64,000 bases of DNA from assembly GCA_002344795.1 (NCBI GenBank), contig DDUM01000054.1:66062-130061 (forward strand), given 5' to 3'. The notes beneath the pieces were generated by a model. The model saw only the letters and a program-made list of their open reading frames with translations. It was not told the DNA's origin and searched no databases. The translations under genes and the position numbers were made by a program. Positions 5,782 through 57,320 of this stretch are shown in pieces (positions within the stretch are counted from its first letter, which is position 1; every line of letters starts with the position of its first letter). Source of the DNA: Flammeovirgaceae bacterium UBA2338 (lineage in GTDB: Bacteria; Bacteroidota; Bacteroidia; Cytophagales; Cyclobacteriaceae).

Positions 5782-5810
5782 CGCATCGATTTTTTACAAT
5801 CCACACATTC

Positions 5811-7535
5811 ATGAGTTCAGCACTATCTATTCCAAAAAGACCAGCACGCCAGTTTCTACCCGAAGATTTCACAGTAACCACCTGGGAGACTTTGAAACCT
5901 TATTTTGACAAGCTCATGGATATGGAGTTGTCTTCACTCGGTCAGCTAGAAAAATGGTTGAAGCACCGCAGTGAGTTAGAATCTGTTGTTTCTGAGGATG
6001 CAGGATGGAGATACATTCACATGACCTGCTTCACAGAAAATGAAGAGCATAGAAAGAGATATCAGGATTTTGTAGAAAACATTCAGCCACATATGTCACC
6101 CCTGTCGGATGCCCTTAACAAGAAATTGATGTCATGTGAATACATGAAATCCCTTGAAAAACAGGAAGGCTATGATATGATGGTGCGAAACATCAGAAAG
6201 GAAATTGAACTGTTCAGAGAGGCGAACATTCCATTGTTTACTGAGATCAACATGAAAACCCAGAAGTATGGGCAGATTTCTGGTGCGATGGCTGTTGAGA
6301 TAGATGGAAAGGAGCTGACCATGCAGCAGGCAGGTGTGTTGCTAATGTCTACCGATAGAGAAAAAAGAGAAACAGTTTACAGAACAATTCTGGAAAGAAG
6401 ACTTAAAGATAAAGAGACATTGGATCAATTGTTTTCGGAGTTGATCCAATTGCGAACCAAAGTGGCTTCCAATGCTGACTTTTCCAATTTTAGAGATTAC
6501 ATGTTTAAGTCTTATGGCCGTTTCGACTACACACCTGAAGACTGCTTTCAATTCCATGAAGCTATTCACTCTGCGGTAGTTCCTATTTTGGACAAGATGG
6601 CTCAGCGAAGAAAGGAAAAGTTGAGGGTATCTGCATTACGACCTTGGGATAAGGCTGTAGATCCTGAGGGGAGAGAGCCGCTAAAAGCATTTAAGGACGG
6701 AAAAGAACTTACAGAAAAAGCGATTACTGTATTTACAAAATTAGATCCTTATTTGGGCCAATGTCTCAGTATCATGCGTGAAATGGGACATCTGGATTTG
6801 GATTCCAGAAAAGGTAAAGCACCAGGTGGGTACAATTATCCTTTGGCTGAGATTGGCGTTCCGTTCATTTTTATGAACGCTACATCTACTCTGAGAGACA
6901 TGACAACCATCATGCACGAGGGGGGACATGCTGTACACAACTTCCTTACCATGGATTTAGCGCTCAATGATTTTAAATCGCCTCCAATGGAAGTGGCCGA
7001 ATTGGCCTCCATGTCCATGGAGCTGATTTCTATGGATCATTGGAATGTTTTCTTTGACAACGAAGCTGATTTAAAAAGAGCCAAGCTGGAGCACCTGGAA
7101 GATTTGATTGCTACCCTTCCCTGGGTGGCTACAATTGATAAGTACCAGCATTGGATATATGAAAACCCCGGACATACACCGGAGGAAAGAAAAGTGAACT
7201 GGAACAGAATTGTGGATGAATTCTCTGATAGTATTACAGACTGGAACGGACTTCAGGAGGGAAAAGACTACATGTGGCAGAAGCAGTTGCACTTATATGA
7301 AGTACCCTTTTACTACATAGAATATGGAATGGCTCAATTGGGAGCAATTGCGGTTTGGAGAAATTATAGAAAAGATCCGCAAAAGGGATTGCAGGGATAC
7401 ATGAATGCCTTAAGGTTAGGGTATATGAAAACGATCCCTGAAATTTATTCGGCAGCAGGTATTCGTTTCGACTTTAGTAAAGAATACATTAAGGAGTTAA
7501 TGGAGTTTGTAAAGCAAGAAATCGATAAAATCTAG
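5811..7535 (+). CDS. M3 family oligoendopeptidase (PepF-like)
   Basis: HEGGH zinc motif, GKAPGGY, EVAELASMSME, HLYEVPFYYIEY; start set at ATG 5811. Confidence 0.9.
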   Translation: MSSALSIPKRPARQFLPEDFTVTTWETLKPYFDKLMDMELSSLGQLEKWLKHRSELESVVSEDAGWRYIHMTCFTENEEHRKRYQDFVENIQPHMSPLSDALNKKLMSCEYMKSLEKQEGYDMMVRNIRKEIELFREANIPLFTEINMKTQKYGQISGAMAVEIDGKELTMQQAGVLLMSTDREKRETVYRTILERRLKDKETLDQLFSELIQLRTKVASNADFSNFRDYMFKSYGRFDYTPEDCFQFHEAIHSAVVPILDKMAQRRKEKLRVSALRPWDKAVDPEGREPLKAFKDGKELTEKAITVFTKLDPYLGQCLSIMREMGHLDLDSRKGKAPGGYNYPLAEIGVPFIFMNATSTLRDMTTIMHEGGHAVHNFLTMDLALNDFKSPPMEVAELASMSMELISMDHWNVFFDNEADLKRAKLEHLEDLIATLPWVATIDKYQHWIYENPGHTPEERKVNWNRIVDEFSDSITDWNGLQEGKDYMWQKQLHLYEVPFYYIEYGMAQLGAIAVWRNYRKDPQKGLQGYMNALRLGYMKTIPEIYSAAGIRFDFSKEYIKELMEFVKQEIDKI

Positions 7536-38662: not shown

Positions 38663-41600
38663 ATGAATAAGCCTCCCTTTGTTTTTTCAATATTATTGGC
38701 CTTACAGCTGTTTTTGAGCCCTAATGCCAGGGCGCAGTATGCCAATGACTGGATAGATTTCGGGAAAGAGTACTATAAAGTTACTGTAGCAGCCGATGGA
38801 GCCTATAGGCTCACTTTTAATGATCTTCAAAATGCTGGGTTTCCGGTAGGTTCGGTTGACCCTAGACGCATTCAGCTCTACCATAGGGGTGTAGAACAGT
38901 CAATTATTGTACAAGGACAAGCAGATGCTCAGTTTGATCCTGGTGATTACATTGAATTTTATGGTAAGAAAAATGATGGTGTCAACGACACAAAATTGTA
39001 CACTGCTGCCAATTTACAACCCCATCTCTACTACAATTTGTACAGCGATACTTCCGCCTATTTTCTTACCTGGAATCAATCGATTGTTCAAGGGAAGAGG
39101 ATGTCTACATTTTCTGAAGTGAATATCACAAACATTCCCAAGGAAACATTTCACTACAATGAGCAATTAAAAGTTTACTCCAATGAATATTCAACAGGAC
39201 TAACTGTAAGTGGTGTACTTCAGTACACACAGTTTGACGAAGGAGAAGGATGGACAGGCTCGACCATATGTATTGGTAACGCGGGTTGTACCGGACAACA
39301 GGATTTTACCATTAATAATTTGGCAGGAGGAATTGTGCCTGGGGGTGTTCCTCAATTAGAAATGTTATTGGTAGGAAGAGATGCACTTAATCATTTGGCC
39401 GAGGTTTATGTAGGATCTTCTACGGGTTCACTTCGACTATTAACAACTGAAAGTTTTGTTAACTATCAAACAAAAAAAATCAACCTTCCACTTGAATGGG
39501 CAGACATTAGCGCAGGGGGCCAACTTATAGTCCGAGTAAAGGCACTGGGAGTGGGAGGAGTACGCGATCGGTTGAGTGTCTCCTATATTAAGGTAATCCA
39601 TCCACAGGATTTTGATATGGCCGCCCAAAATTCGAAGTGGTTTATATTAGCCGAGAAACCTTCTGACAAATCTTATATTGAAATCACCAATCCGGGAGCA
39701 GGGTTGTCAATCTGGGATATTACCGATCCAAATCTGATTGAGATAATTGGAACTAACCCTGCCGGATCCAATACGAGTGCTGTGGTTCCCAATACCGCAG
39801 ATAGCAGAAAGCTTTATGTTAAAAACACTTTTCTAACGCCCGTTATTAAGCGTACCAGCTTGAGGCAGATATTTCCTTCTGCTCACAATTATATTATTAT
39901 TTCCAATAAAGCATTAATGAAACCAGCATTGGGTTATTCTGATGCGGTAAAGGCCTATGGTGGATATAGAGCTTCAGTAGAAGGAGGAGGTTATGATACT
40001 TTGGTGGTTTCAATGGATCAGCTTTATAATCAATTCAATTACGGGGAAAGTTCGTCATCAGCCATTTATGAATTCATGAAGTTTATGGTTGACAATGGGG
40101 ACCCCAAGTACCTCTTCTTAATTGGGAAAGGTCTTAATGTTTCACAAGGGTATTTTAGAAAAACTATTTTTGGGCCCAACGACTTTAAAGACCTGGTTCC
40201 CTCTGCCGGTATGCCTGGTTCAGATATGGCTTTTACTGCAGGGTTGGGGGGCACCACGTTTGAGCCCGCTGTGCCTACAGGAAGAATTACAGCAAGCAGT
40301 CCCACACAAGTTGCTTCTTATCTTAACAAAGTAAAAGAAACAGATGCTCTTGGGTTTGATGAATTATGGAGAAAGGATGTGTTGCATTTGAGCGGAGGGA
40401 TTCAGCCCCTGGAGTTGACTACTTTCAGACAGTACATGGATAACTTTGGTGATGTGGCGGAAGGTCCATACTATGGAGGGAAGATTAAAACAATAGGAAA
40501 GCAAGAACCGAATCCAGTTGAGCTTATTAATGTTTCTGAAGAGGTAAACAAGGGGGTTAACTTCATTACGTTTTTTGGACACTCATCACCAAGTACAATA
40601 GATATTGACATAGGGTTTGCCACCGATCCGGTGTTAGGGTATAATAATCCAGGAAAGTATCCGGCTTTTTTAATCAATGGGTGTAATGCGGGGGTCTTCT
40701 TTTCCAATGGAACTGTTTTTGGTGAGGATTGGGTGTTGGCCGCCAATAAAGGAGCTCGTAGTTTAATCGCACATAGTTCTTTTGGTTTCGTAAGTACGTT
40801 AAGATCGTATACTCAATTATTTTATGAAATCGGTTTTGGAGATTCTACGTTTATAAGAACAGGGATAGGAGATATTCAAAAGGAAGTAGCACGGAGATAT
40901 TTAGAAATAAACGCTACAGGAATATCAACCGTAACCCAAGTGCAACAAATGATGATGTTGGGTGATCCGGCAGTAAAACTATTTGGTGCACTAAAACCTG
41001 ATTATGAAACCAATGAGAATTCGCTATACCTTGAATCGTTCGATGGAAAGCCTGTTACGGCTTTAACAGATTCCTTTGCTATAAAGGTGATTGCAAGAAA
41101 CTTTGGATCGGTAAGTAAAGCGAATCTTGGGGTAAGGGTAACGAGAACATTCAATGATAAGACATCTATAACCTACGACTCTGTCTTTAATTCCCCTGGT
41201 TCAATAGATACACTCTCTTTTCTTCTCAAAAGAGAAGAGGGAGTAAGTGGGTATGGTAGGAATCAATTTTTAGTAGAATTAGATTTTGAAAATAAAATTG
41301 AAGAACTGAATGAGGATAACAATGTGGCTTTCTTGGAATTATCTATTCCGTTAAGTGGTACCAGAAACTTGTTGCCGAGACCGTTTGGGATCGTTAGCCA
41401 GCAAGATGTTGTTCTTAAGTGGCAAAATACTGATCTTCTCTCATTACCCAGAGCGTATAATATTGAGGTGGATACTGTGAACACATTCAACAGTTCATTT
41501 TTAAAACAAGCAACACTTGAGGGAAAGGTACTGCTGGAATGGTCAGTCTCATTACTTGAAAAAGATTCACTTGCTTATTACTGGAGAACTAAGTTGGCTG

Positions 41601-43621
41601 ACCCACAACCTGAGGAGAATGAAGAGTGGGCAACCAGTTCTTTTACTTATATCCACAATGGTGATGAAGGGTGGGCACAGGTTCATTTCCCTCAATATCT
41701 TGAAAACCCTACTGAAGGATTAATTACAGATCCGGTGGTAAGAGAACTTAAGTTCGAAGAAACCTCTGCTACAGTTTTTGTAAACAACTTTGGAGTAAAT
41801 CATCCATCACCATCTACTACCTCTTTTAAAATAAATGACATAGAGTATAACCTGGGCACACAAGGGCAACCCTGTAGAAACAATACCATCAATTTCGTTG
41901 CCTTTGACAAAACTACTTTAGTTCCTTATGCGGGTATACCATTTATTTTTCAAGATCCTAGAACTTGTGGGAGGGAGCCACAGGTAATTAATAGTTTTAA
42001 ATTAGCAGAACTGGAAACGGGAGGAAATGATGATTTGCTGAAGTACATTGATAATATTAAGGTAAGTGATTCAGTTGCTATTTTTTCAATGGGTAACGCT
42101 AGTTATACTTTATGGCCAGCCAATGTAAAATCAAAACTAGAAGAGCTGGGAATAAGTGGGGCTCAGTTATCATTGCTACAGGATGGCGAGCCGGTAGCGA
42201 TTTTTGGAAAAAAAGGAGGTACCCCTGGAGATGCAGTAATTGTAAAATCGATTGACACACCAGCAGATGAGCAGGAGCTGCAGGTAAGCAAATCCCTGAC
42301 AGGGAAGTACAATAATGGTAAAATGGTTTCTGTGTTAGTGGGGCCAGCCAATAGTTGGCAAAACTTTAGTCCGAACGTAAGGCGAACGACTGCTTCAGAT
42401 AACTACTCATTTGATTTGATTGGAGTAAGCCTTTTAGGGATAGAGACATTACTCTTTTCCAATGTTACGGCAGCCGTTGATCTCTCAGGAGTTGATGCCT
42501 CAAGTTTTCCAATGATGAAATTGATTTTATACACTGAGGATGAAGTGGATCAAACACCAGTCCAGCTTCATAATTGGATTGTGAATTATGAGCCGGTGGC
42601 AGAGGGAGTACTGTTGTTTAGGGAGGCACTGGAAAACGGTATGGTTTCAGAAGGGAAATTGTGGAAGGCTAGTTATTCATTTTTGAATATCTCTGAAAAG
42701 TTATTTACTGATTCGCTGGAAGTGAAGTTTAAAACTTTTAGCAAGGAGCAGAGAGCATCTGAAAACAAACAGATAAATATTATGGCACCCTTACCGGGTG
42801 ATACAACCCATTTTAGTTTTATGGTTGATACCAATCAAAAGGGAGGACTTAATGATGTGAATGTTTTTGTAAATGACAGAATTCTTCCTGAGCAATACTA
42901 TGAGAACAATACGCTCGAGCTGCTCAATTATCTTGATGTACAGGTGGATGAGATTGTACCTGTACTGGATGTAACTGTTGACGGAAGGTATGTTGAGGAT
43001 GGTGACTTTGTTGGAAGCACTCCCTTTATAGTGGCAACGATTTGGGATGAGAATCAATTTATCCCAAAGAAAGATACCCTTGGTGTGCGTGTGTTGTTAA
43101 AGCCTCCATGCATAGGAAGTTGTGAGTTTGAATCGATTTACTTTAGTCGTTCGGACATTGAATGGTTTCCGGCAACAGACAACTCGGACTTTCGGATTGA
43201 ATATAAGCCCGATCTTTTACTTGAGGGTGAATATACATTGAGAGTTGAGATTGCAGATGGTAGTGGTAACATGGCAGTGACGCCATACGAAGTCAGGTTA
43301 AAAGTTGACCTGAACACTGCTATACATTTTATTGAACCCTATCCAAACCCATCCACCGATAAAGTATTTTTTGAGTTTGTAGTCTCGGGTAACAGGCCAC
43401 CGGATTCATACCAATTACAAATCTTTGCTTTAGATGGAAGATTGGTAAGGACTTTCTCCAGAAGTCAGAAAAGTTTGCATGTTGGTCGTAACCAACTCGC
43501 CTGGGAAGGTAATGGAAATCAAGAAACGTCACTGAAAGGAGGGATGTACATTTACAAGTTGGGGATAACCATAGATGGAATCCCTCATTTCAGAAACGGT
43601 AAAATTATATTAATTCGGTAG
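38663..43621 (+). CDS. C25 (gingipain-family) protein, PorU2-like T9SS sortase homologue with C-terminal T9SS domain
   Basis: Signal peptide, YLFLIGKG, FFGHS and INGC dyad, LGDPA, C-terminal PYPNPST...GMYIYKL. Confidence 0.82.
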   Translation: MNKPPFVFSILLALQLFLSPNARAQYANDWIDFGKEYYKVTVAADGAYRLTFNDLQNAGFPVGSVDPRRIQLYHRGVEQSIIVQGQADAQFDPGDYIEFYGKKNDGVNDTKLYTAANLQPHLYYNLYSDTSAYFLTWNQSIVQGKRMSTFSEVNITNIPKETFHYNEQLKVYSNEYSTGLTVSGVLQYTQFDEGEGWTGSTICIGNAGCTGQQDFTINNLAGGIVPGGVPQLEMLLVGRDALNHLAEVYVGSSTGSLRLLTTESFVNYQTKKINLPLEWADISAGGQLIVRVKALGVGGVRDRLSVSYIKVIHPQDFDMAAQNSKWFILAEKPSDKSYIEITNPGAGLSIWDITDPNLIEIIGTNPAGSNTSAVVPNTADSRKLYVKNTFLTPVIKRTSLRQIFPSAHNYIIISNKALMKPALGYSDAVKAYGGYRASVEGGGYDTLVVSMDQLYNQFNYGESSSSAIYEFMKFMVDNGDPKYLFLIGKGLNVSQGYFRKTIFGPNDFKDLVPSAGMPGSDMAFTAGLGGTTFEPAVPTGRITASSPTQVASYLNKVKETDALGFDELWRKDVLHLSGGIQPLELTTFRQYMDNFGDVAEGPYYGGKIKTIGKQEPNPVELINVSEEVNKGVNFITFFGHSSPSTIDIDIGFATDPVLGYNNPGKYPAFLINGCNAGVFFSNGTVFGEDWVLAANKGARSLIAHSSFGFVSTLRSYTQLFYEIGFGDSTFIRTGIGDIQKEVARRYLEINATGISTVTQVQQMMMLGDPAVKLFGALKPDYETNENSLYLESFDGKPVTALTDSFAIKVIARNFGSVSKANLGVRVTRTFNDKTSITYDSVFNSPGSIDTLSFLLKREEGVSGYGRNQFLVELDFENKIEELNEDNNVAFLELSIPLSGTRNLLPRPFGIVSQQDVVLKWQNTDLLSLPRAYNIEVDTVNTFNSSFLKQATLEGKVLLEWSVSLLEKDSLAYYWRTKLADPQPEENEEWATSSFTYIHNGDEGWAQVHFPQYLENPTEGLITDPVVRELKFEETSATVFVNNFGVNHPSPSTTSFKINDIEYNLGTQGQPCRNNTINFVAFDKTTLVPYAGIPFIFQDPRTCGREPQVINSFKLAELETGGNDDLLKYIDNIKVSDSVAIFSMGNASYTLWPANVKSKLEELGISGAQLSLLQDGEPVAIFGKKGGTPGDAVIVKSIDTPADEQELQVSKSLTGKYNNGKMVSVLVGPANSWQNFSPNVRRTTASDNYSFDLIGVSLLGIETLLFSNVTAAVDLSGVDASSFPMMKLILYTEDEVDQTPVQLHNWIVNYEPVAEGVLLFREALENGMVSEGKLWKASYSFLNISEKLFTDSLEVKFKTFSKEQRASENKQINIMAPLPGDTTHFSFMVDTNQKGGLNDVNVFVNDRILPEQYYENNTLELLNYLDVQVDEIVPVLDVTVDGRYVEDGDFVGSTPFIVATIWDENQFIPKKDTLGVRVLLKPPCIGSCEFESIYFSRSDIEWFPATDNSDFRIEYKPDLLLEGEYTLRVEIADGSGNMAVTPYEVRLKVDLNTAIHFIEPYPNPSTDKVFFEFVVSGNRPPDSYQLQIFALDGRLVRTFSRSQKSLHVGRNQLAWEGNGNQETSLKGGMYIYKLGITIDGIPHFRNGKIILIR

Positions 43622-51315: not shown

Positions 51316-51927
51316 ATGAAGACAATCAGAGAATATTCATTAGCTTTTGTACTTGCATCGTTCTTGTTGGTGTCGGGGTGCGATTCGGAAACTAAAACAA
51401 TTGTTTGTAACTGCGAAGGAACATTGACAATGTTTGAGAATTATAGAGGCATTGTTGCCTTTAGTAGAACTGATCAGTTTATTATTGTTTCAGATCAGCT
51501 AGGATTTGTTGTCCCTTGCGAGGGATTTGATTCTGCCATGATGATTGATGGTGAAAAGATTATATTCTCAGGAACCTACATTTCAAACTGCACCGAATAT
51601 AATACCTCATACGGCATTAACACATTTAATGTTCAATTGTCAAGCATTGAGCGTTCAGATACTATTTACAGCAAACCGCCCTTAAAAATTGAAATAATTA
51701 AATCAGAAGACTATGGTTACCCAGTTGGATTCGGTTATCGCTTGGAATATAAAAATACCTTTAAAATTTTACAGCCGTTTTTGCCTGGGGTCGGAGGATT
51801 CGTTCCGTTTTCGACTAGTGCGGATGCATTTAAGATAGCTGTCAAAACAGGTTATCGATTAAGTAAAATAAATGACTTGCCATCAACCCCGTTTACTGAC
51901 CTTTACTATTTACGAATTATTAATTAG
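51316..51927 (+). CDS. Lipoprotein with DUF4907-like C-terminal domain
   Basis: Lipobox VSGC; GFGY...ILQPFLPGVGG..PFSTSADAFKIA. Confidence 0.6.
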   Translation: MKTIREYSLAFVLASFLLVSGCDSETKTIVCNCEGTLTMFENYRGIVAFSRTDQFIIVSDQLGFVVPCEGFDSAMMIDGEKIIFSGTYISNCTEYNTSYGINTFNVQLSSIERSDTIYSKPPLKIEIIKSEDYGYPVGFGYRLEYKNTFKILQPFLPGVGGFVPFSTSADAFKIAVKTGYRLSKINDLPSTPFTDLYYLRIIN

Positions 51928-51974
51928 TCACATACACGAGAAATTAATATTCAGTTGGACTATCAAACCCACTC

Positions 51975-52040
51975 AATAAGGTAACTATTCAAGCCGTTGT
52001 AACTTATTTTGACAGCGGAGGCGCTTGCGCTTCACCTGAA
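51975..52040 (+). pseudogene. Unannotated remnant of a paralogue of the 52739 secreted protein
   Basis: Translates NKVTIQAVVTYFDSGGACASPE versus NKVTLQAVIQYFDPNGSGSCASPE at 52997-53068. Confidence 0.75.
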
Positions 52041-52053
52041 AAACAACAAATGC

Positions 52054-52732
52054 ATGAAAGATCTTAAATGTCTTGTACTTCTAATGATACTTTTGGGATT
52101 CACGATCTCATCCTCAGCACAATCATTTATTTCAGAAGTTGAAATATTTGGTGGTACATCTCACAGTTATCTTAGGTGGGACTTCCCATACAGGCAAAAC
52201 TTGAATTTATCATTCGTAGGTGGAATTGGTGTAACTCACATTGTTAGAGAACGAATCGAAATTGATGCCAAAATTATGGTTGAGGAAAAAGGTTTCCAAA
52301 CTGATTATGTAGAGACGCTTTTTGATGCCAATAACAATGCAATAACATCACGATATATTCAATCTGGTCAACTAAGGTATACAACACTAGTCCTTATGCC
52401 TAGGATATTATTGGACAATAGAAATCATTTTTTTACTGGTATAGGATCTTATTTTTCATTGTTGAATAGAGCGAGCGAAACCAGTGGAAAGGTTTTCAAT
52501 AGATGGGTCTCAGTTCTCATTCAATCATACAGAAACCACTAAAAACTTTAGATCGTTTGACTTTGGTATTTCTGCTGCCATTGGGTACAAAAGGCCTTTG
52601 GGTACTAAGTTTGGAATAACAAGTCAACTCTTCCTGAATTGGGGACTCACCAATATTTCAGACCTTCCACTTAGTGCCACTAAAATTAGAAACGTTTCAA
52701 TGTCACTTTTAATTGGACTAAACATAAATTAA
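52054..52732 (+). pseudogene. Small outer-membrane beta-barrel (PorT/OMP_b-brl_2-like) split by a +1 frameshift near 52480
   Basis: ORFs 52009-52542 and 52484-52732 join into ~225 aa: signal peptide, EEKG, YTTLVL, GIGSYFS.L, then FDFGISAAIG...WGLTNI...LLIG. Confidence 0.75.
52085..52150 (+). repeat. 66-bp exact direct repeat, copy 1 (copy 2 at 57035-57100)
   Basis: TGATACTTTTGGGATTCACG...GAAGTTGAAATATTTG identical at offset 4950. Confidence 0.9.
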
Positions 52733-52738
52733 CGAACC

Positions 52739-54085
52739 ATGAAACTTATAAAAAAAAATCTCGTACTGGCCGTAATCTCGTCCGGTTTTTGTTCTCAAGC
52801 GCAACCAATAATCACTTCACAAGTTGGTGCGCTAACTCTGGTCTGCCCTGGGGCCCCAATTAGGTATGAGATAAATTCTTCGGGATCTAGTTTTTGTCAG
52901 GTGAATTGGACAATTACAGATGGATCTGGGAGCTACCAGTTTGGAAGTACTAGTACTTCCTCTATAATTTTTATTTCATGGGACGATCGAAAACCAAACA
53001 AAGTTACCCTTCAGGCGGTTATCCAGTACTTTGATCCGAATGGTTCGGGTTCGTGCGCCAGTCCGGAAACAATTACACGCACCTTTACCCACGTCCTTCG
53101 TTCAGTATTTGGAGAAACGATTACAGCGGGGACACTTCCTGCAGTTCCTTATTGTAATACATCAGCAGTAAATGTCTTGGTGAATCATATGTATATACAA
53201 AATACTGGGGGCATTGCCGAGCCCCCATTGGCCGAAGTGAATAACTATCAATGGATTCTGCCTACCGGCTGGAAAGAAGTAGGAGGGGCATCTGGAACGG
53301 TTTATACTAACGCAAATGCAATTGCGATAGAACCGATCAATCCAAGTGGAAATTGCTCCGCAGGAGGGAATATTTTGGTGAGAGGAATAGCAGGCCTAAC
53401 CAGCTGTGCAGGACTATTGGTAAGTCAGAGCTATCAAAAAACAATTCCACTTAACAGGACACCATCTTTTACAATATCCGCTTCTGGTGGATATACTGGC
53501 CAACAGCAGTGTGGTCAAACAACCCCAGTAACTTTTTCAGTTCCCGCTCAATCCTGTGCCTCAAGTTACACATGGAATTTCCCATCCGGCTGGAGTGGAT
53601 CATCCACCTCTAACTCCATTGTATTAACTCCAAGTGGAGGCGCAAATGTGGCAGGTTCAATCACTGTGACGACAAGTGTAAACAATGGATTATGCACGTT
53701 AGCTTCACCACAATTTACTATTTCTTATAGCAATCCCACACTTTCAATATCAAGTGGTAGTCCTGTATGCACAACCGGAAGCACTTTTACACTGAACAAC
53801 GTTCCTCCAGGTTCATCTGTTAGCTGGCAAGCAAGCCCGTCTTCATTATTTAGTAGCAGCTCTGGGAGTGGAGCAAGTGCATTCTTGACTGCTCTTTCAT
53901 CAAAAAGTAGTGGTGCCGGAGATATTACCTTTTATGTCAGTAATCCAGGATGTAACCTAAATGCAATAGTGCCTGGCTCTCTTTGGGTGGGTAAGCCTTC
54001 AGGTGTTATTACTAATCCCACAGGTGTACCAGCCGTTGAGGCCAATTTAGGTAGCTGGGTTGTATTTTGGGCTATAATAACATAA
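52739..54085 (+). CDS. Secreted Ig/PKD-like repeat protein, C-terminally truncated (T9SS signal absent)
   Basis: Repeated Y.W..P.GW modules, Ser/Thr/Gly-rich; stops 3 codons after a segment shared with the 54888 protease. Confidence 0.7.
   Translation: MKLIKKNLVLAVISSGFCSQAQPIITSQVGALTLVCPGAPIRYEINSSGSSFCQVNWTITDGSGSYQFGSTSTSSIIFISWDDRKPNKVTLQAVIQYFDPNGSGSCASPETITRTFTHVLRSVFGETITAGTLPAVPYCNTSAVNVLVNHMYIQNTGGIAEPPLAEVNNYQWILPTGWKEVGGASGTVYTNANAIAIEPINPSGNCSAGGNILVRGIAGLTSCAGLLVSQSYQKTIPLNRTPSFTISASGGYTGQQQCGQTTPVTFSVPAQSCASSYTWNFPSGWSGSSTSNSIVLTPSGGANVAGSITVTTSVNNGLCTLASPQFTISYSNPTLSISSGSPVCTTGSTFTLNNVPPGSSVSWQASPSSLFSSSSGSGASAFLTALSSKSSGAGDITFYVSNPGCNLNAIVPGSLWVGKPSGVITNPTGVPAVEANLGSWVVFWAIIT
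53981..54073 (+). repeat. Diverged direct repeat, copy 1 (copy 2 at 56421-56513)
   Basis: LWVGKPSGVITNPTGVPAVEANLGSWVVFWA versus IWVGKPSGVITNPSGVPAVEANIGNWVVLWA, 26/31 aa identical. Confidence 0.9.
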
Positions 54086-54870
54086 TGAAGGTCTGTTCGG
54101 AAAATAAAGGAATTTCATGGTATCAAGAAAGAATCGTAGATGCATCAAGTGCTAATCTGGGATTGGTAATTTTATTTTTTTTGACTTGCATAACTTCGCT
54201 TTATGCATTCGGACAGAATGGCTTTGCGCTTTCAGCCCCAGTGATTTACAGCAAAGTTGAAGCACCAAATAACTGGAGTCCTCCAACTGCTGTCAATCGA
54301 CTAAATCAATTCAATGGGACATCAATAGGATACGGGATAAATTTGAATTACTCGTTTCGACCAACTTTTATTACCAAAAACCAACATTTCTTTTTGAATA
54401 TTGGAGCTGGTTATTATAATCAACGATTCGACTTAGAAAGGCCATTCGATTATGTCTCGCCACTGCTGCCCATATTCTATACTGATTTATACTCTTACTA
54501 TTGCTGGCAATTGTCAGCAGGATTAACTTACAATTATCCGCTGTCCAAAAATTATTTTCTGTCAGGTAATTTAAGTTATAACAAGCTAAATTCATTTCGA
54601 CAGGAATATACCCCAACTTCTAACCACGGTTATGGTGAACTAACTCAAGTCAATCATAATCGAATAGATTTTGGTAACACTCTAGTCCTTGCAATCGGCC
54701 TTAATAGGAACTTAGGAAATGGATTTTTACTAGGACTAAATGTTTTGGTGCCTTTGTATATTCGTTGGCGTAATGATAAAATCTTTAAAGATGACCCAAC
54801 GGAATTTTCACATCCAAAATTTAGTTTGGGCTCCAGCATAAGTATAACCTATCGTTTAAAAAATATTTAA
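54067..54870 (+). CDS. Small outer-membrane beta-barrel protein; start uncertain
   Basis: Signal-like LVILFFLTCITSLYAFG-Q at aa ~33-50; alternating aromatic strands; ends SISITYRL. Confidence 0.65.
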   Translation: MGYNNIMKVCSENKGISWYQERIVDASSANLGLVILFFLTCITSLYAFGQNGFALSAPVIYSKVEAPNNWSPPTAVNRLNQFNGTSIGYGINLNYSFRPTFITKNQHFFLNIGAGYYNQRFDLERPFDYVSPLLPIFYTDLYSYYCWQLSAGLTYNYPLSKNYFLSGNLSYNKLNSFRQEYTPTSNHGYGELTQVNHNRIDFGNTLVLAIGLNRNLGNGFLLGLNVLVPLYIRWRNDKIFKDDPTEFSHPKFSLGSSISITYRLKNI

Positions 54871-54887
54871 CTTCTAAAACATGAAAC

Positions 54888-56978
54888 ATGAGACCAATTT
54901 TACTTCTGACCTTGTTCCTTGCCTCTTTGAATTTTGCAAAGGCGCAAGTAAAAACAAATTTTAACAATGCTGAGGTAATAACTGCCAAGGGAAAATTCGA
55001 TAAAAATTATCTGACAAAATCACCTCACACAATCCCAGCCAAGGATATCAAGGCTCTCCTTGAAAGAGAATCTCTAGAGAATAAATCCGGAGAGCCGAAA
55101 CCGTTTAAGATTGCTGAGGCCGTAAAAGTTGATATTGATGTTGTAAAAGAGGCTGCATGGGTGGAGGAAGTAGGATTTGCACATGGAAAATATACTATTG
55201 TTGCAAGTGGCGCAAAATCCATCAGCGCAAACTTCGATCGATTCAAACTTCCAAGGGGATCGGAATTGTATGTTTACAGTGCGAATGGAGAGATGATCAC
55301 TGGCCCCGTAACAGAGAATGAAAACAATGAGAATAATTTTTGGGGTACATGGGTCTATAAAGGCGAGGCGCTAACAGTTGATTTTAAAACCCCTATTGAA
55401 AGTAAATCAGAAATCAAACTTCATATCTCAAGCATAGCTTATGGATACAAAGAACTTTATGTCAATAATTTTGGGGAGTCTGCCGCTTGTAATATAAATG
55501 TGTTATGCATACAGGGTAATGGTTGGGAAAACGAGCGAAATTCAGTAGCTCTGATATTGGATGCCAACAGCATAGCATTGTGTACCGGAGCATTAATCAA
55601 CAACACCTGTAATTTTAACACACTAAATTTTTTAACCGCAAATCATTGTTTTGATGGGAACCCTGCAAATTGGAAATTTACTTTTCAAGCTTGGAGCTCA
55701 ACTTGCAATCCATCCCAAAATGCCAACGGAGTTACCTTAAACGGTTCTACTTTAAGAGCGCGTAATGCAGCTAGCGATTTTTGTTTAGTTGAATTAAACC
55801 AAATGCCCCCTGCAAATTCAAATATCACGTTTGCTGGATGGAATAGGAATCCCGCTGCTGCCTTAAATACGGTGGGAATTCACCATCCTGCTGGGGACGT
55901 TATGAAAATTGCAATTGACGCAAATCCCCCTGTAGCTGTGGCATGGTTTACAGGGGCGACAAACCATTGGAGGGCTCATTTTCAACAAGGGACTGTCCAG
56001 CCTGGATCATCTGGATCTCCACTATTTGATCAAAATCATAGAATAATTGGCCAACTACACGGAGATCAAAATAATCAAGGAAATTACTGCACTCAACAAA
56101 TCGGTGAATATGGTAGATTTGATGTTTCATGGGTGGGGGGTGGAACGAACGATACAAGACTAAGTAACTGGCTTGATCCAAATAATACGGGGGCATTGAC
56201 TACAGACACTCGAGGAAATGAAATAACAGGACCTGCACTTGTTTGTACAACTGCAAACTATACTTTTGATGGGCAAGTAACATGGTCATCGAGCAATCCA
56301 AATGGATTAAACATTAATTCCACAACGGGGGCAGCCACACGCGTTAACAAATTCAATGGTCAGGTTACCATTACGGCAACTATAAATAGTGGTTGTGGAG
56401 GCGTAAATGTTGATAGGACTATCTGGGTAGGTAAACCATCAGGTGTTATCACCAATCCCTCAGGTGTGCCAGCTGTTGAGGCGAACATAGGCAATTGGGT
56501 TGTATTATGGGCAACCTCAACTCCAGGTGCCACAACCAGTTCGCTAAATTGGTGGACCAATAATGCAGCGGCTCTTAATTTAAATGTAGGTTATGGAAAT
56601 TGTTCGGTGGAATGCTTACAAGCAGGTTATAACTTTATCTATGTAACTTCCAGCAATGCCTGTGGTACCAATTTGGTTCGTCAAATACCGATCAGCGTTA
56701 CATCTGGCGGTTGTCAAAATCCACCTTGCAATCCCATGTTCGTATCCCCGAACCCCTCATCCTCATATTTCGAAGTAAGCCTTGATTTGACACGTGAAGA
56801 ATATACGAAAGGGTACGATGTTAAACTATATGATAGCAACCAAATGAATTTGGTATATCAAACTACCTCTACCGAACCGATAATAAGGATTGAGACATTG
56901 AGCCTCAAAAAGGGGATGTATATACTACAAATGACGACCTACAAACAGGTGATTACAGACAGGGTTTTAATTGAATGA
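54888..56978 (+). CDS. Secreted trypsin-like (lysyl endopeptidase-type S1) protease with PKD-like and T9SS type A C-terminal domains
   Basis: Triad FLTANHC / SDFCL / PGSSGSPLF; C-terminal VSPNPSS...KGMYIL. Confidence 0.88.
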   Translation: MRPILLLTLFLASLNFAKAQVKTNFNNAEVITAKGKFDKNYLTKSPHTIPAKDIKALLERESLENKSGEPKPFKIAEAVKVDIDVVKEAAWVEEVGFAHGKYTIVASGAKSISANFDRFKLPRGSELYVYSANGEMITGPVTENENNENNFWGTWVYKGEALTVDFKTPIESKSEIKLHISSIAYGYKELYVNNFGESAACNINVLCIQGNGWENERNSVALILDANSIALCTGALINNTCNFNTLNFLTANHCFDGNPANWKFTFQAWSSTCNPSQNANGVTLNGSTLRARNAASDFCLVELNQMPPANSNITFAGWNRNPAAALNTVGIHHPAGDVMKIAIDANPPVAVAWFTGATNHWRAHFQQGTVQPGSSGSPLFDQNHRIIGQLHGDQNNQGNYCTQQIGEYGRFDVSWVGGGTNDTRLSNWLDPNNTGALTTDTRGNEITGPALVCTTANYTFDGQVTWSSSNPNGLNINSTTGAATRVNKFNGQVTITATINSGCGGVNVDRTIWVGKPSGVITNPSGVPAVEANIGNWVVLWATSTPGATTSSLNWWTNNAAALNLNVGYGNCSVECLQAGYNFIYVTSSNACGTNLVRQIPISVTSGGCQNPPCNPMFVSPNPSSSYFEVSLDLTREEYTKGYDVKLYDSNQMNLVYQTTSTEPIIRIETLSLKKGMYILQMTTYKQVITDRVLIE

Positions 56979-57003
56979 TTTATTGAGGCTCAAGCTTAGA
57001 TTG

Positions 57004-57320
57004 ACGAAAGATATTAAATGCCCTATCCTTCTAGTGATACTTTTGGGATTCACGATCTCATCCTCAGCACAATCATTTATTTCAGAAGTTGAAATATTTG
57101 CAGGGCCATCATTACTTTCTATTCGAGATAACAATCAATATAAGAAATATGGGGAGATTAAGATTGGGTATTCCTTTGGAGCAGGATTGGTTCATAAAAT
57201 CAGCAAAGTTGGGCTGTCAATACCCTGATAGGTTTTGAGAGAAAGGGATATAACAAGAACCATTATAAAAAGGATCCCCCTCTTTTGCCGAATGACCAAT
57301 TACCTATAGAGAATATCTAA
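57004..57320 (+). pseudogene. Degraded small beta-barrel gene sharing its 5' end with the 52054 gene
   Basis: ACG aligned to ATG 52054, 66-bp identity, stop at 57226-57228, shifted frame continues LIGFERKGY to TAA 57320. Confidence 0.75.

Follow-up and report, generated by a model that had tools for sequence, protein, structure and literature searches.

Type IX secretion system (T9SS) cargo proteins that carry a type A C-terminal domain (CTD) use PorV (LptO) as their general shuttle, with PorU-PorV and PorZ-PorQ as attachment complexes; PorV and PorQ are both 14-stranded FadL-like barrels serving many cargo proteins. In published work, every type A CTD examined was handled by PorV (PMC12618676). 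PorP/SprF-like barrels, on the other hand, pair with cargo bearing a type B CTD, as do the products of the SprB-SprF and Fjoh_3952-Fjoh_3951 gene pairs of Flavobacterium johnsoniae (PMC12618676, PMC9143113). In the current view, type A cargo is served by the general shuttle PorV, and private barrels exist for type B cargo only. Here, we describe a locus of Flammeovirgaceae bacterium UBA2338, a sludge organism (family Cyclobacteriaceae, order Cytophagales), located at positions 51960–57320 of a 64,000-nucleotide stretch of contig DDUM01000054.1 (hereafter the window). According to the map of open reading frames (ORFs) and a repeat search, it is a row of units in each of which a small barrel gene precedes a gene for type A CTD cargo. 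The stretch is probably a largely decayed array of such two-gene barrel-cargo operons, of two kinds, namely barrel B2 plus protease and barrel B1 plus a PKD-like multi-Ig protein. A literature search found no description of small barrels upstream of type A cargo.

Like the PorP/SprF systems, the locus ties an outer-membrane barrel gene tightly to one T9SS cargo gene, and the pairing is conserved and recurs among paralogues. In contrast to PorP/SprF, the barrels are small (∼220 mature residues with eight predicted strands) and unrelated to PF11751, for which no match at E≤0.1 was obtained with B1a, B2, barrel 3 or their intact relatives. They are also encoded upstream, not downstream, of their cargo, the CTD of the cargo is of type A rather than type B, and this CTD does not co-vary with the barrel.

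A preliminary description of this DNA, made from the sequence alone, had proposed a cassette locus of barrel-plus-cargo pairs that exchanges modules by recombination, with simple decay of a tandem duplication as the alternative. The gene order that it gave was reproduced in the ORF map. In each operon of the proposed array, the T9SS type A cargo gene would follow the outer-membrane barrel gene 0–20 nt on. From left to right, the six elements are a relic of a PKD cargo gene, barrel B1a, cargo 1, barrel B2, the protease, and barrel B1b; they and their parts are the following:

51960–52052, + strand: cargo 0, relic of a third PKD-type cargo gene; ∼29 codons are left, corresponding to residues 82–110 of full-length homologues, with both sides deleted
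52054–52732, + strand: barrel B1a, pseudogene, distantly PF13568-like; two overlapping frames with one frameshift at ∼52484–52509
52056–52160, + strand: left copy of the leader patch common to B1a and B1b, 66 bp of which (52085–52150) are exact
52739–54085, + strand: cargo 1, 448 aa, with signal peptide and PKD_6, cut before the last immunoglobulin (Ig)-like module and the type A CTD
53979–54072, + strand: start of the C-terminal module kept in cargo 1, i.e., its first 94 nt, common to the protease
54085–54870, + strand: barrel B2, 261 aa, intact, with a fused 5′ end
54888–56978, + strand: serine protease, 696 aa, with prepro region, lysyl-endopeptidase-type S1 domain (residues 196–440), Ig-like modules and type A CTD
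56367–56978, + strand: C-terminal module in the protease, made up of its last Ig-like domain and CTD, replaced relative to the closest relative, L036
57001–57320, + strand: barrel B1b (barrel 3), pseudogene, PF13568-type; frameshift at ∼57207–57210 and 3′ end cut

Only B2 and the protease are intact genes, the other four of the six elements being pseudogenes or relics. No gene of the locus has a second copy elsewhere in the assembly of its own genome (4.16 Mb in 102 contigs). The interest of the locus lies in the conserved B2-protease unit, less in the B1-PKD unit, and in the exchange of Ig+CTD tails, not in shuffling.

The pairings were counted over all B2 loci that could be retrieved from Cytophagales genomes and metagenomes, 21 of which are distinct. 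A gene for a Lys-C-type protease lies directly 3′ of B2 in 16 of them (the window, G005, L019, L021, L027, L029, L030, L033, L034, L036, L040, G196, G240, L056, L058, and L060; L029 is included on a protease remnant only), separated from it by an intergenic gap of −4 to about +20 nt. In three loci, two B2 paralogues stand ahead of one protease. The adjacency persists at 28–32% identity of the barrels and 47–53% identity of the proteases, across the order's families, and in eight or more distinct genomic contexts. The contexts in which units were found are unrelated and include cysS/topA, the position after the cox operon, the position behind a HigB/HigA-like toxin–antitoxin pair, and, in the metagenome-assembled genome SZAS-69, the space between nuoH and nuoI. 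A B1 barrel is followed by cargo with PKD_6 and CTD in seven of the eight loci of this lineage (the window, G005, G343, G206, G176, SZAS-69, and L047). The barrel-plus-cargo pairs of the preliminary description are therefore borne out: both pairings recur, tightly spaced, in many other genomes and are conserved in Cytophagales genomes and metagenomes in unrelated contexts. Because the frames abut or overlap, each barrel family keeps its own cargo family, and the pairing outlasts both divergence and relocation, barrel and cargo presumably act together.

Two of the relatives deserve a comment. At L021, a group II intron reverse transcriptase gene (5796–7112) lies directly 5′ of the B2-B2-protease unit, and a tyrosine integrase gene is found at the contig end. 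In SZAS-69 (L023, 6678–9793), genes for an M43 peptidase with CTD, a B1 barrel, and PKD cargo with CTD are located between nuoH and nuoI, all on the same strand. Neither target-site duplications nor flanking or terminal repeats nor mobility genes were found at this nuo-operon island; the only repeated parts are the shared cargo tails. For the locus of UBA2338, a syntenic empty site could not be defined within the genus, the orthologues of the flanking genes being 40–49% identical and located on other contigs.

Sequence assigns the protease to the lysyl-endopeptidase branch within S1. Its catalytic domain matches PDB 1arb with an E value of 4e-42 over residues 196–440 (phmmer), and the motifs TANHC, SDFCL, and GSSGSP align with those of the His, Asp, and Ser of the 1arb triad. 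The Pfam domains recognized are Trypsin_2 and Por_Secre_tail (PF18962). The CTD scores above both curated cut-offs (PF18962, 31.3 bits, cut-off 27; TIGR04183, 30.6 bits, cut-off 23). When T9SS type A cargo is defined by a CTD above cut-off together with a signal peptide, the protease qualifies and cargo 1 does not. At L036 (3737–5857), the protease is called as three ORFs (373, 34, and 225 aa), which could reflect decay or assembly errors.

The genome of UBA2338 encodes a repertoire of T9SS cargo, with 30 type A CTD matches above cut-off, and only one of these 30 genes, the one at this locus, has a barrel gene upstream. The barrel thus does not accompany type A cargo in general, and an upstream barrel as a general feature of such cargo is ruled out for this genome. 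Three other type A CTD genes (on C2 near 22934, C18 near 9203, and C41 near 23305) stand behind genes for paralogous proteins of 240–275 aa that have a signal peptide, Ig-like repeats, and, at the C-terminus, a transmembrane helix, possibly another partner-plus-cargo arrangement. Lys-C-like proteases of other genera at 31–38% identity have small lipoproteins or unrelated proteins encoded upstream, and no barrels. In L009, L011, and L012, which represent other Cytophagales genera, distant Lys-C-like T9SS proteases follow small lipoprotein genes (145–228 aa), whose products are perhaps inhibitors or partners.

B2 has zero matches in Pfam and NCBIfam. Its AlphaFold2 model, calculated from an alignment of 30 homologues, has a predicted local distance difference test score (pLDDT) of 85 and shows eight long antiparallel strands. 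The best PDB folds retrieved with it by Foldseek are OmpA-, OmpW-, and OpcA-type barrels, at modest template modelling (TM) scores of 0.40–0.46. On the strength of this model, B2 is predicted to be an eight-stranded outer-membrane barrel of a new family, which comprises 199 cluster representatives at E≤0.001 among 1.84 billion proteins and has no Pfam model. The family is rare: 5 of 401 genomes in the order encode it, and 3 of 25 in the genus. Conservation within it is equal in predicted loops and strands (0.69 each); L1 (0.74) and L4 (0.76) are the most conserved segments, and the predicted extracellular loops hold most of the invariant polar residues. Loops as conserved as strands are unusual among outer-membrane proteins, and their conservation in B2 suggests that the barrel has a conserved ligand outside the cell.

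The copy of B2 in the window has an unusual 5′ end. The stop codon of cargo 1 overlaps its ATG (TAATG, 54083–54087), and B2 may be translationally coupled to a pseudogene. Homology to the B2 gene of L036 begins at 54173, and the first ∼29 codons, which have no counterpart in relatives, are thus not native. The deletion that cut cargo 1 also took the original B2 start and left an atypical N-terminal extension of 24 residues.

The B1 barrels are of a different kind. B1a belongs distantly to the B1 family (hhalign probability 90.6), its C-terminal part matches PF13568 weakly (E 0.012, 16 bits, cut-off 27), and the barrel of L047 aligns across both of its frames. B1b is 65% identical to this intact L047 barrel (249 aa), which itself matches PF13568 above the cut-off (E 4e-13, 50.3 bits); B2 does not match PF13568. 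The start codon of B1b has changed from ATG to ACG, with an in-frame TTG ahead of it, and ∼140 codons are deleted from its 3′ end, as judged by a three-frame reading. The AlphaFold2 model of the L047 barrel is of low confidence (pLDDT 56); its pattern fits eight strands. B1 and B2 were considered as one family and rejected as such: profile–profile comparison matched the signal peptide only (probability 3.8), and the two families are therefore treated as unrelated. Cargo 1 is recognized by its PKD_6 domain (Pfam, E 1e-12), and its CTD is absent. Since its homologues are 576–643 aa long and carry PF18962, ∼130–200 of its residues are missing, the secretion tail among them. Up to residue 413, it shares 56% identity with the cargo of L047, and the deletion junction lies at ∼54073.

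The C-terminal modules of the cargo have a history of their own. L036, the closest relative, is 88.6% identical to the window at the DNA level over 54173–56367, and nothing outside this segment is detectably alike (blastn). B2 is 85% identical between the two, the first 450 residues of the protease (prepro and catalytic part) are 92% identical, and the CTD only 34%. Because the homology ends at 56367 and the CTD is so much less similar than the body, the protease must have had its last Ig-like module replaced together with its CTD. The replaced module starts where similarity to cargo 1 sets in, which indicates that cargo 1 and the protease once bore the same tail. Similar observations were made elsewhere. 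In G005, the CTDs of the protease and of the adjoining PKD cargo are 81% identical; in SZAS-69, the M43 peptidase gene and the adjoining PKD cargo gene share 77–87% DNA identity over ∼350 nt of their 3′ parts. The CTDs of orthologous proteases of different genomes are mostly 16–34% identical, with a few (G005, L019, and L030) at 46–65%. Going by these identities, neighbouring cargo genes share or homogenize C-terminal modules in three genomes.

Within the locus, the three homology pairs of the preliminary description were found again, by repeat search and tblastn, where it had placed them, and all are far beyond chance. The first pair consists of the relic (51975–52046), encoding 24 aa that are 67% identical to cargo 1 (tblastn, E 3e-5); over 51966–52052, it is 59% identical to residues 82–110 of the full-length cargo of L047. 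The second pair (53979–54072 and 56419–56512) shows 82% identity across 94 nt, and its edges in the DNA alignment are sharp at either end. The third (52056–52160 and 57006–57110) is 90.5% identical over 105 nt, including the 66 exact bp at 52085–52150 and 57035–57100; outside the patch, only 27% identity is left upstream and 45% downstream. The suggestion that breaks always coincide with a cargo/barrel boundary is right for two of them (52046/52054 and 54073/54085), just before barrel starts. It does not hold for the intragenic breaks, which are the end of the 66-bp patch, the break in the protease at 56367–56419, and the point where barrel 3 stops. All three internal homologies record past events. 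Of these, the exact 66 bp in the B1 leaders most plausibly reflect recent gene conversion over a short tract between old paralogues. The history of the locus comprises the reduction of a third cargo gene by deletion, an Ig+CTD module common to cargo 1 and the protease and later cut in cargo 1, and gene conversion over the leaders of both B1 barrels.

Several other explanations have to be weighed. According to the first, the locus is the product of plain decay of duplicates without any functional link, the barrels are ordinary outer-membrane proteins, and adjacency merely reflects common descent of a small island. B2 barrels do occur without the protease in five loci (L022, L028, L038, L046, which is a marginal hit, and G013), more distant PF13568 matches, in other families, have housekeeping surroundings, adjoining dnaX or FemAB-like genes without cargo, the distant Lys-C-like proteases mentioned above lack an upstream barrel, and the identity of B2 tracks that of the protease, as co-inheritance predicts. 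However, common descent does not readily account for an adjacency that withstands such divergence of barrel and protease in at least eight contexts, with frames overlapping or nearly abutting, nor for two unrelated barrel families that each keep their own cargo family; moreover, the sole unit kept intact in the window is a complete pair. This explanation is therefore unlikely. In the form given in the preliminary description, simple decay of a tandem duplication, it is too simple, since the paralogues are old (the B1 barrels share ∼45% of nucleotides outside the patch) and the barrels come from two unrelated families.

Alternatively, the barrels could be cargo-specific T9SS shuttles or anchors that read the CTD, the type A counterpart of PorP/SprF. 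The tight pairs do resemble stoichiometric operons, as known for type B cargo and SprF-like shuttles (PMC12618676), and the protease carries a genuine type A CTD. Yet between the window and L036 the barrel and the protease body have stayed alike, and the CTD has not; in G005, a single type of CTD is found on the cargo of two unrelated barrel families. CTDs thus swap independently of B2, which makes a CTD-reading role improbable. The barrels themselves, eight-stranded, encoded upstream and matching neither PF11751 nor PorV, argue in the same direction, as does the breadth of CTDs handled by PorV. Overall, we consider a shuttle of this kind quite improbable.

An active cassette locus, in which ongoing recombination between the internal repeats varies surface proteins as in antigenic-variation systems, is less probable still. 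It would make sense of direct repeats with sharp edges, one of them exact over 66 bp of leader, of truncated copies that could act as silent donors, and of C-terminal modules that have moved between neighbouring genes in three genomes. Against it stands the constancy of the locus. Metagenome runs of sludge and bioreactors, 20 in all from 12 studies (2014–2024), contain 99% of the sampled 31-mers of the locus, and in four runs from four studies the Logan contig over 52121–57064 (4944 bp) has 0 differences from the window; neither differences nor alternative joints were found in the contigs of these four runs. In the same runs, the internal segment is covered as deeply as its flanks (28 vs 25.6/25.1, 13.1 vs 13.9/14.3, 14.5 vs 16.1/20.1, and 55.6 vs 56.3/55.6). 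Identical contigs and equal depth together exclude both an assembly artefact and a large subpopulation with a deletion or excision. No recombinase gene or domain was detected within 10 kb of the locus, nor any invertase or inverted-repeat architecture at the locus; the repeat pairs are only three, short, and partly diverged (82%), and the would-be donors are frameshifted barrels rather than variable surface parts. The proposal that modules were exchanged by recombination thus stands as history, in the form of the gene-conversion patch and the swaps of Ig+CTD modules, and falls as a description of an active locus, most elements of which have decayed. The locus now appears to be a fixed fossil, not a switching device. 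Finally, artefacts in assembling a genome from metagenomes have next to no probability as the source of repeats and junctions: although the genome is fragmented into 102 contigs and the 66-bp repeat interrupts the unitigs (which break only there), four independent studies yield the same 4944-bp sequence with the same flanks, the repeat unitig has ∼2-fold the depth of its neighbours, one linear path alone uses all pieces, and the other junctions lie within single contigs.

A more far-reaching reading, less likely than not, is that two unrelated families of small eight-stranded barrels are private surface partners, B2 of a Lys-C-type protease and B1 of a PKD-like protein, which dock their own type A cargo, as mature protein or pro-form, after export, and that the two-gene units are mobile modules. 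In the case of B2, the barrel at the cell surface would dock or anchor the prepro or catalytic part of the protease, not its CTD, which is the weakest step of the proposal. Two observations point to B2 as a partner of the protease body: its sequence varies together with the catalytic part rather than with the CTD, and its predicted loops are as conserved as its strands. The simplest candidate for the ligand of these loops is the co-encoded protease, whose conserved prepro or catalytic part would be retained or taken up at the surface; this conjecture falls somewhat short of an even chance.

Several points weigh against such a partnership. The link between barrel and cargo is drawn from gene order, and the loop topology of B2 from the AlphaFold2 model combined with the usual orientation of outer-membrane proteins. 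Five of the 21 loci have B2 without the protease; at one of them, G013, three intact barrels stand in a row (B2, B1, B2) with no cargo, in a genome that has no orthologue of the protease. Even the copy of B2 in the window may be impaired, given that its 5′ end is a fusion. Contigs from RNA libraries do cross the cargo 1/B2 and B2/protease boundaries, at a low depth similar to that of the flanks, so that the evidence for co-transcription is weak and carry-over of DNA possible. Lastly, the constancy of the locus is to be read at the level of contigs, which drop rare rearranged subpopulations, and, since all runs appear to stem from one clone, as invariance within one widespread strain.

The surroundings of the locus can be described briefly. 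On its 5′ side are a SusC/SusD pair, a 275-aa ORF, and a gene for a DUF4907 protein; its 3′ neighbour is a haem-PAS kinase gene. The content of G and C is unremarkable, and the GC skew, somewhat flatter than that of the flanking DNA, does not decide the matter. A scan for promoters and terminators, with models that do not include Bacteroidota promoters, gave no excess over shuffled sequences and had no hit in the intergenic gaps. A 165-bp segment of the window on the island's left border (51768–51932, the 3′ end of the DUF4907 gene) differs from a contig of the RNA run X28 by 25 mismatches and a 1-bp deletion, with both flanks identical, which looks like a strain-level recombination patch. A gene 8 kb upstream of the locus (38663–43621) encodes a 1652-aa Peptidase_C25 protein (gingipain/PorU-type) with a weak CTD match.

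PorV and PorQ, which act on type A CTD proteins once these have been translocated, are outer-membrane barrels like those of this locus. B1 and B2, however, are small and rare, each is tied to one cargo family, and they match FadL poorly (TM about 0.2). As a candidate for cargo-specific handling of type A proteins at the surface, the B2-protease operon can be put to the test; if the reading is true, private partners add a cargo-specific layer to a pathway thought to rely on shared PorV and the attachment complex, and two-gene units are modules that change their genomic site and can enter even the nuo operon. Among PF13568 (OMP_b-brl_2) barrels, of which PorT is one, the relative of barrel 3 belongs to a subfamily that has PKD_6+CTD cargo encoded directly 3′. 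The protease shares its catalytic domain, triad motifs, prepro region, and C-terminal extensions with Achromobacter protease I/Lys-C (PDB 1arb, 4nsy) and is Lys-C-type by sequence; it differs from that enzyme in its added Ig-like modules and type A CTD and in the barrel gene ahead of it. A T9SS-secreted lysyl endopeptidase is known from Porphyromonas gingivalis in the form of PepK. The rgpA, kgp, and hagA genes of the same organism have shared, recombining C-terminal adhesin/CTD regions. There, as here, C-terminal modules of T9SS cargo genes are homogenized or exchanged between paralogous or neighbouring genes, with the difference that the exchange described here is between unrelated adjoining types of cargo (the protease, the M43 peptidase, and the PKD protein). 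Such exchange or homogenization of Ig+CTD tails, independent of the enzyme body, is relevant to the evolution of secretion tags and to the annotation of truncated cargo genes as pseudogenes.

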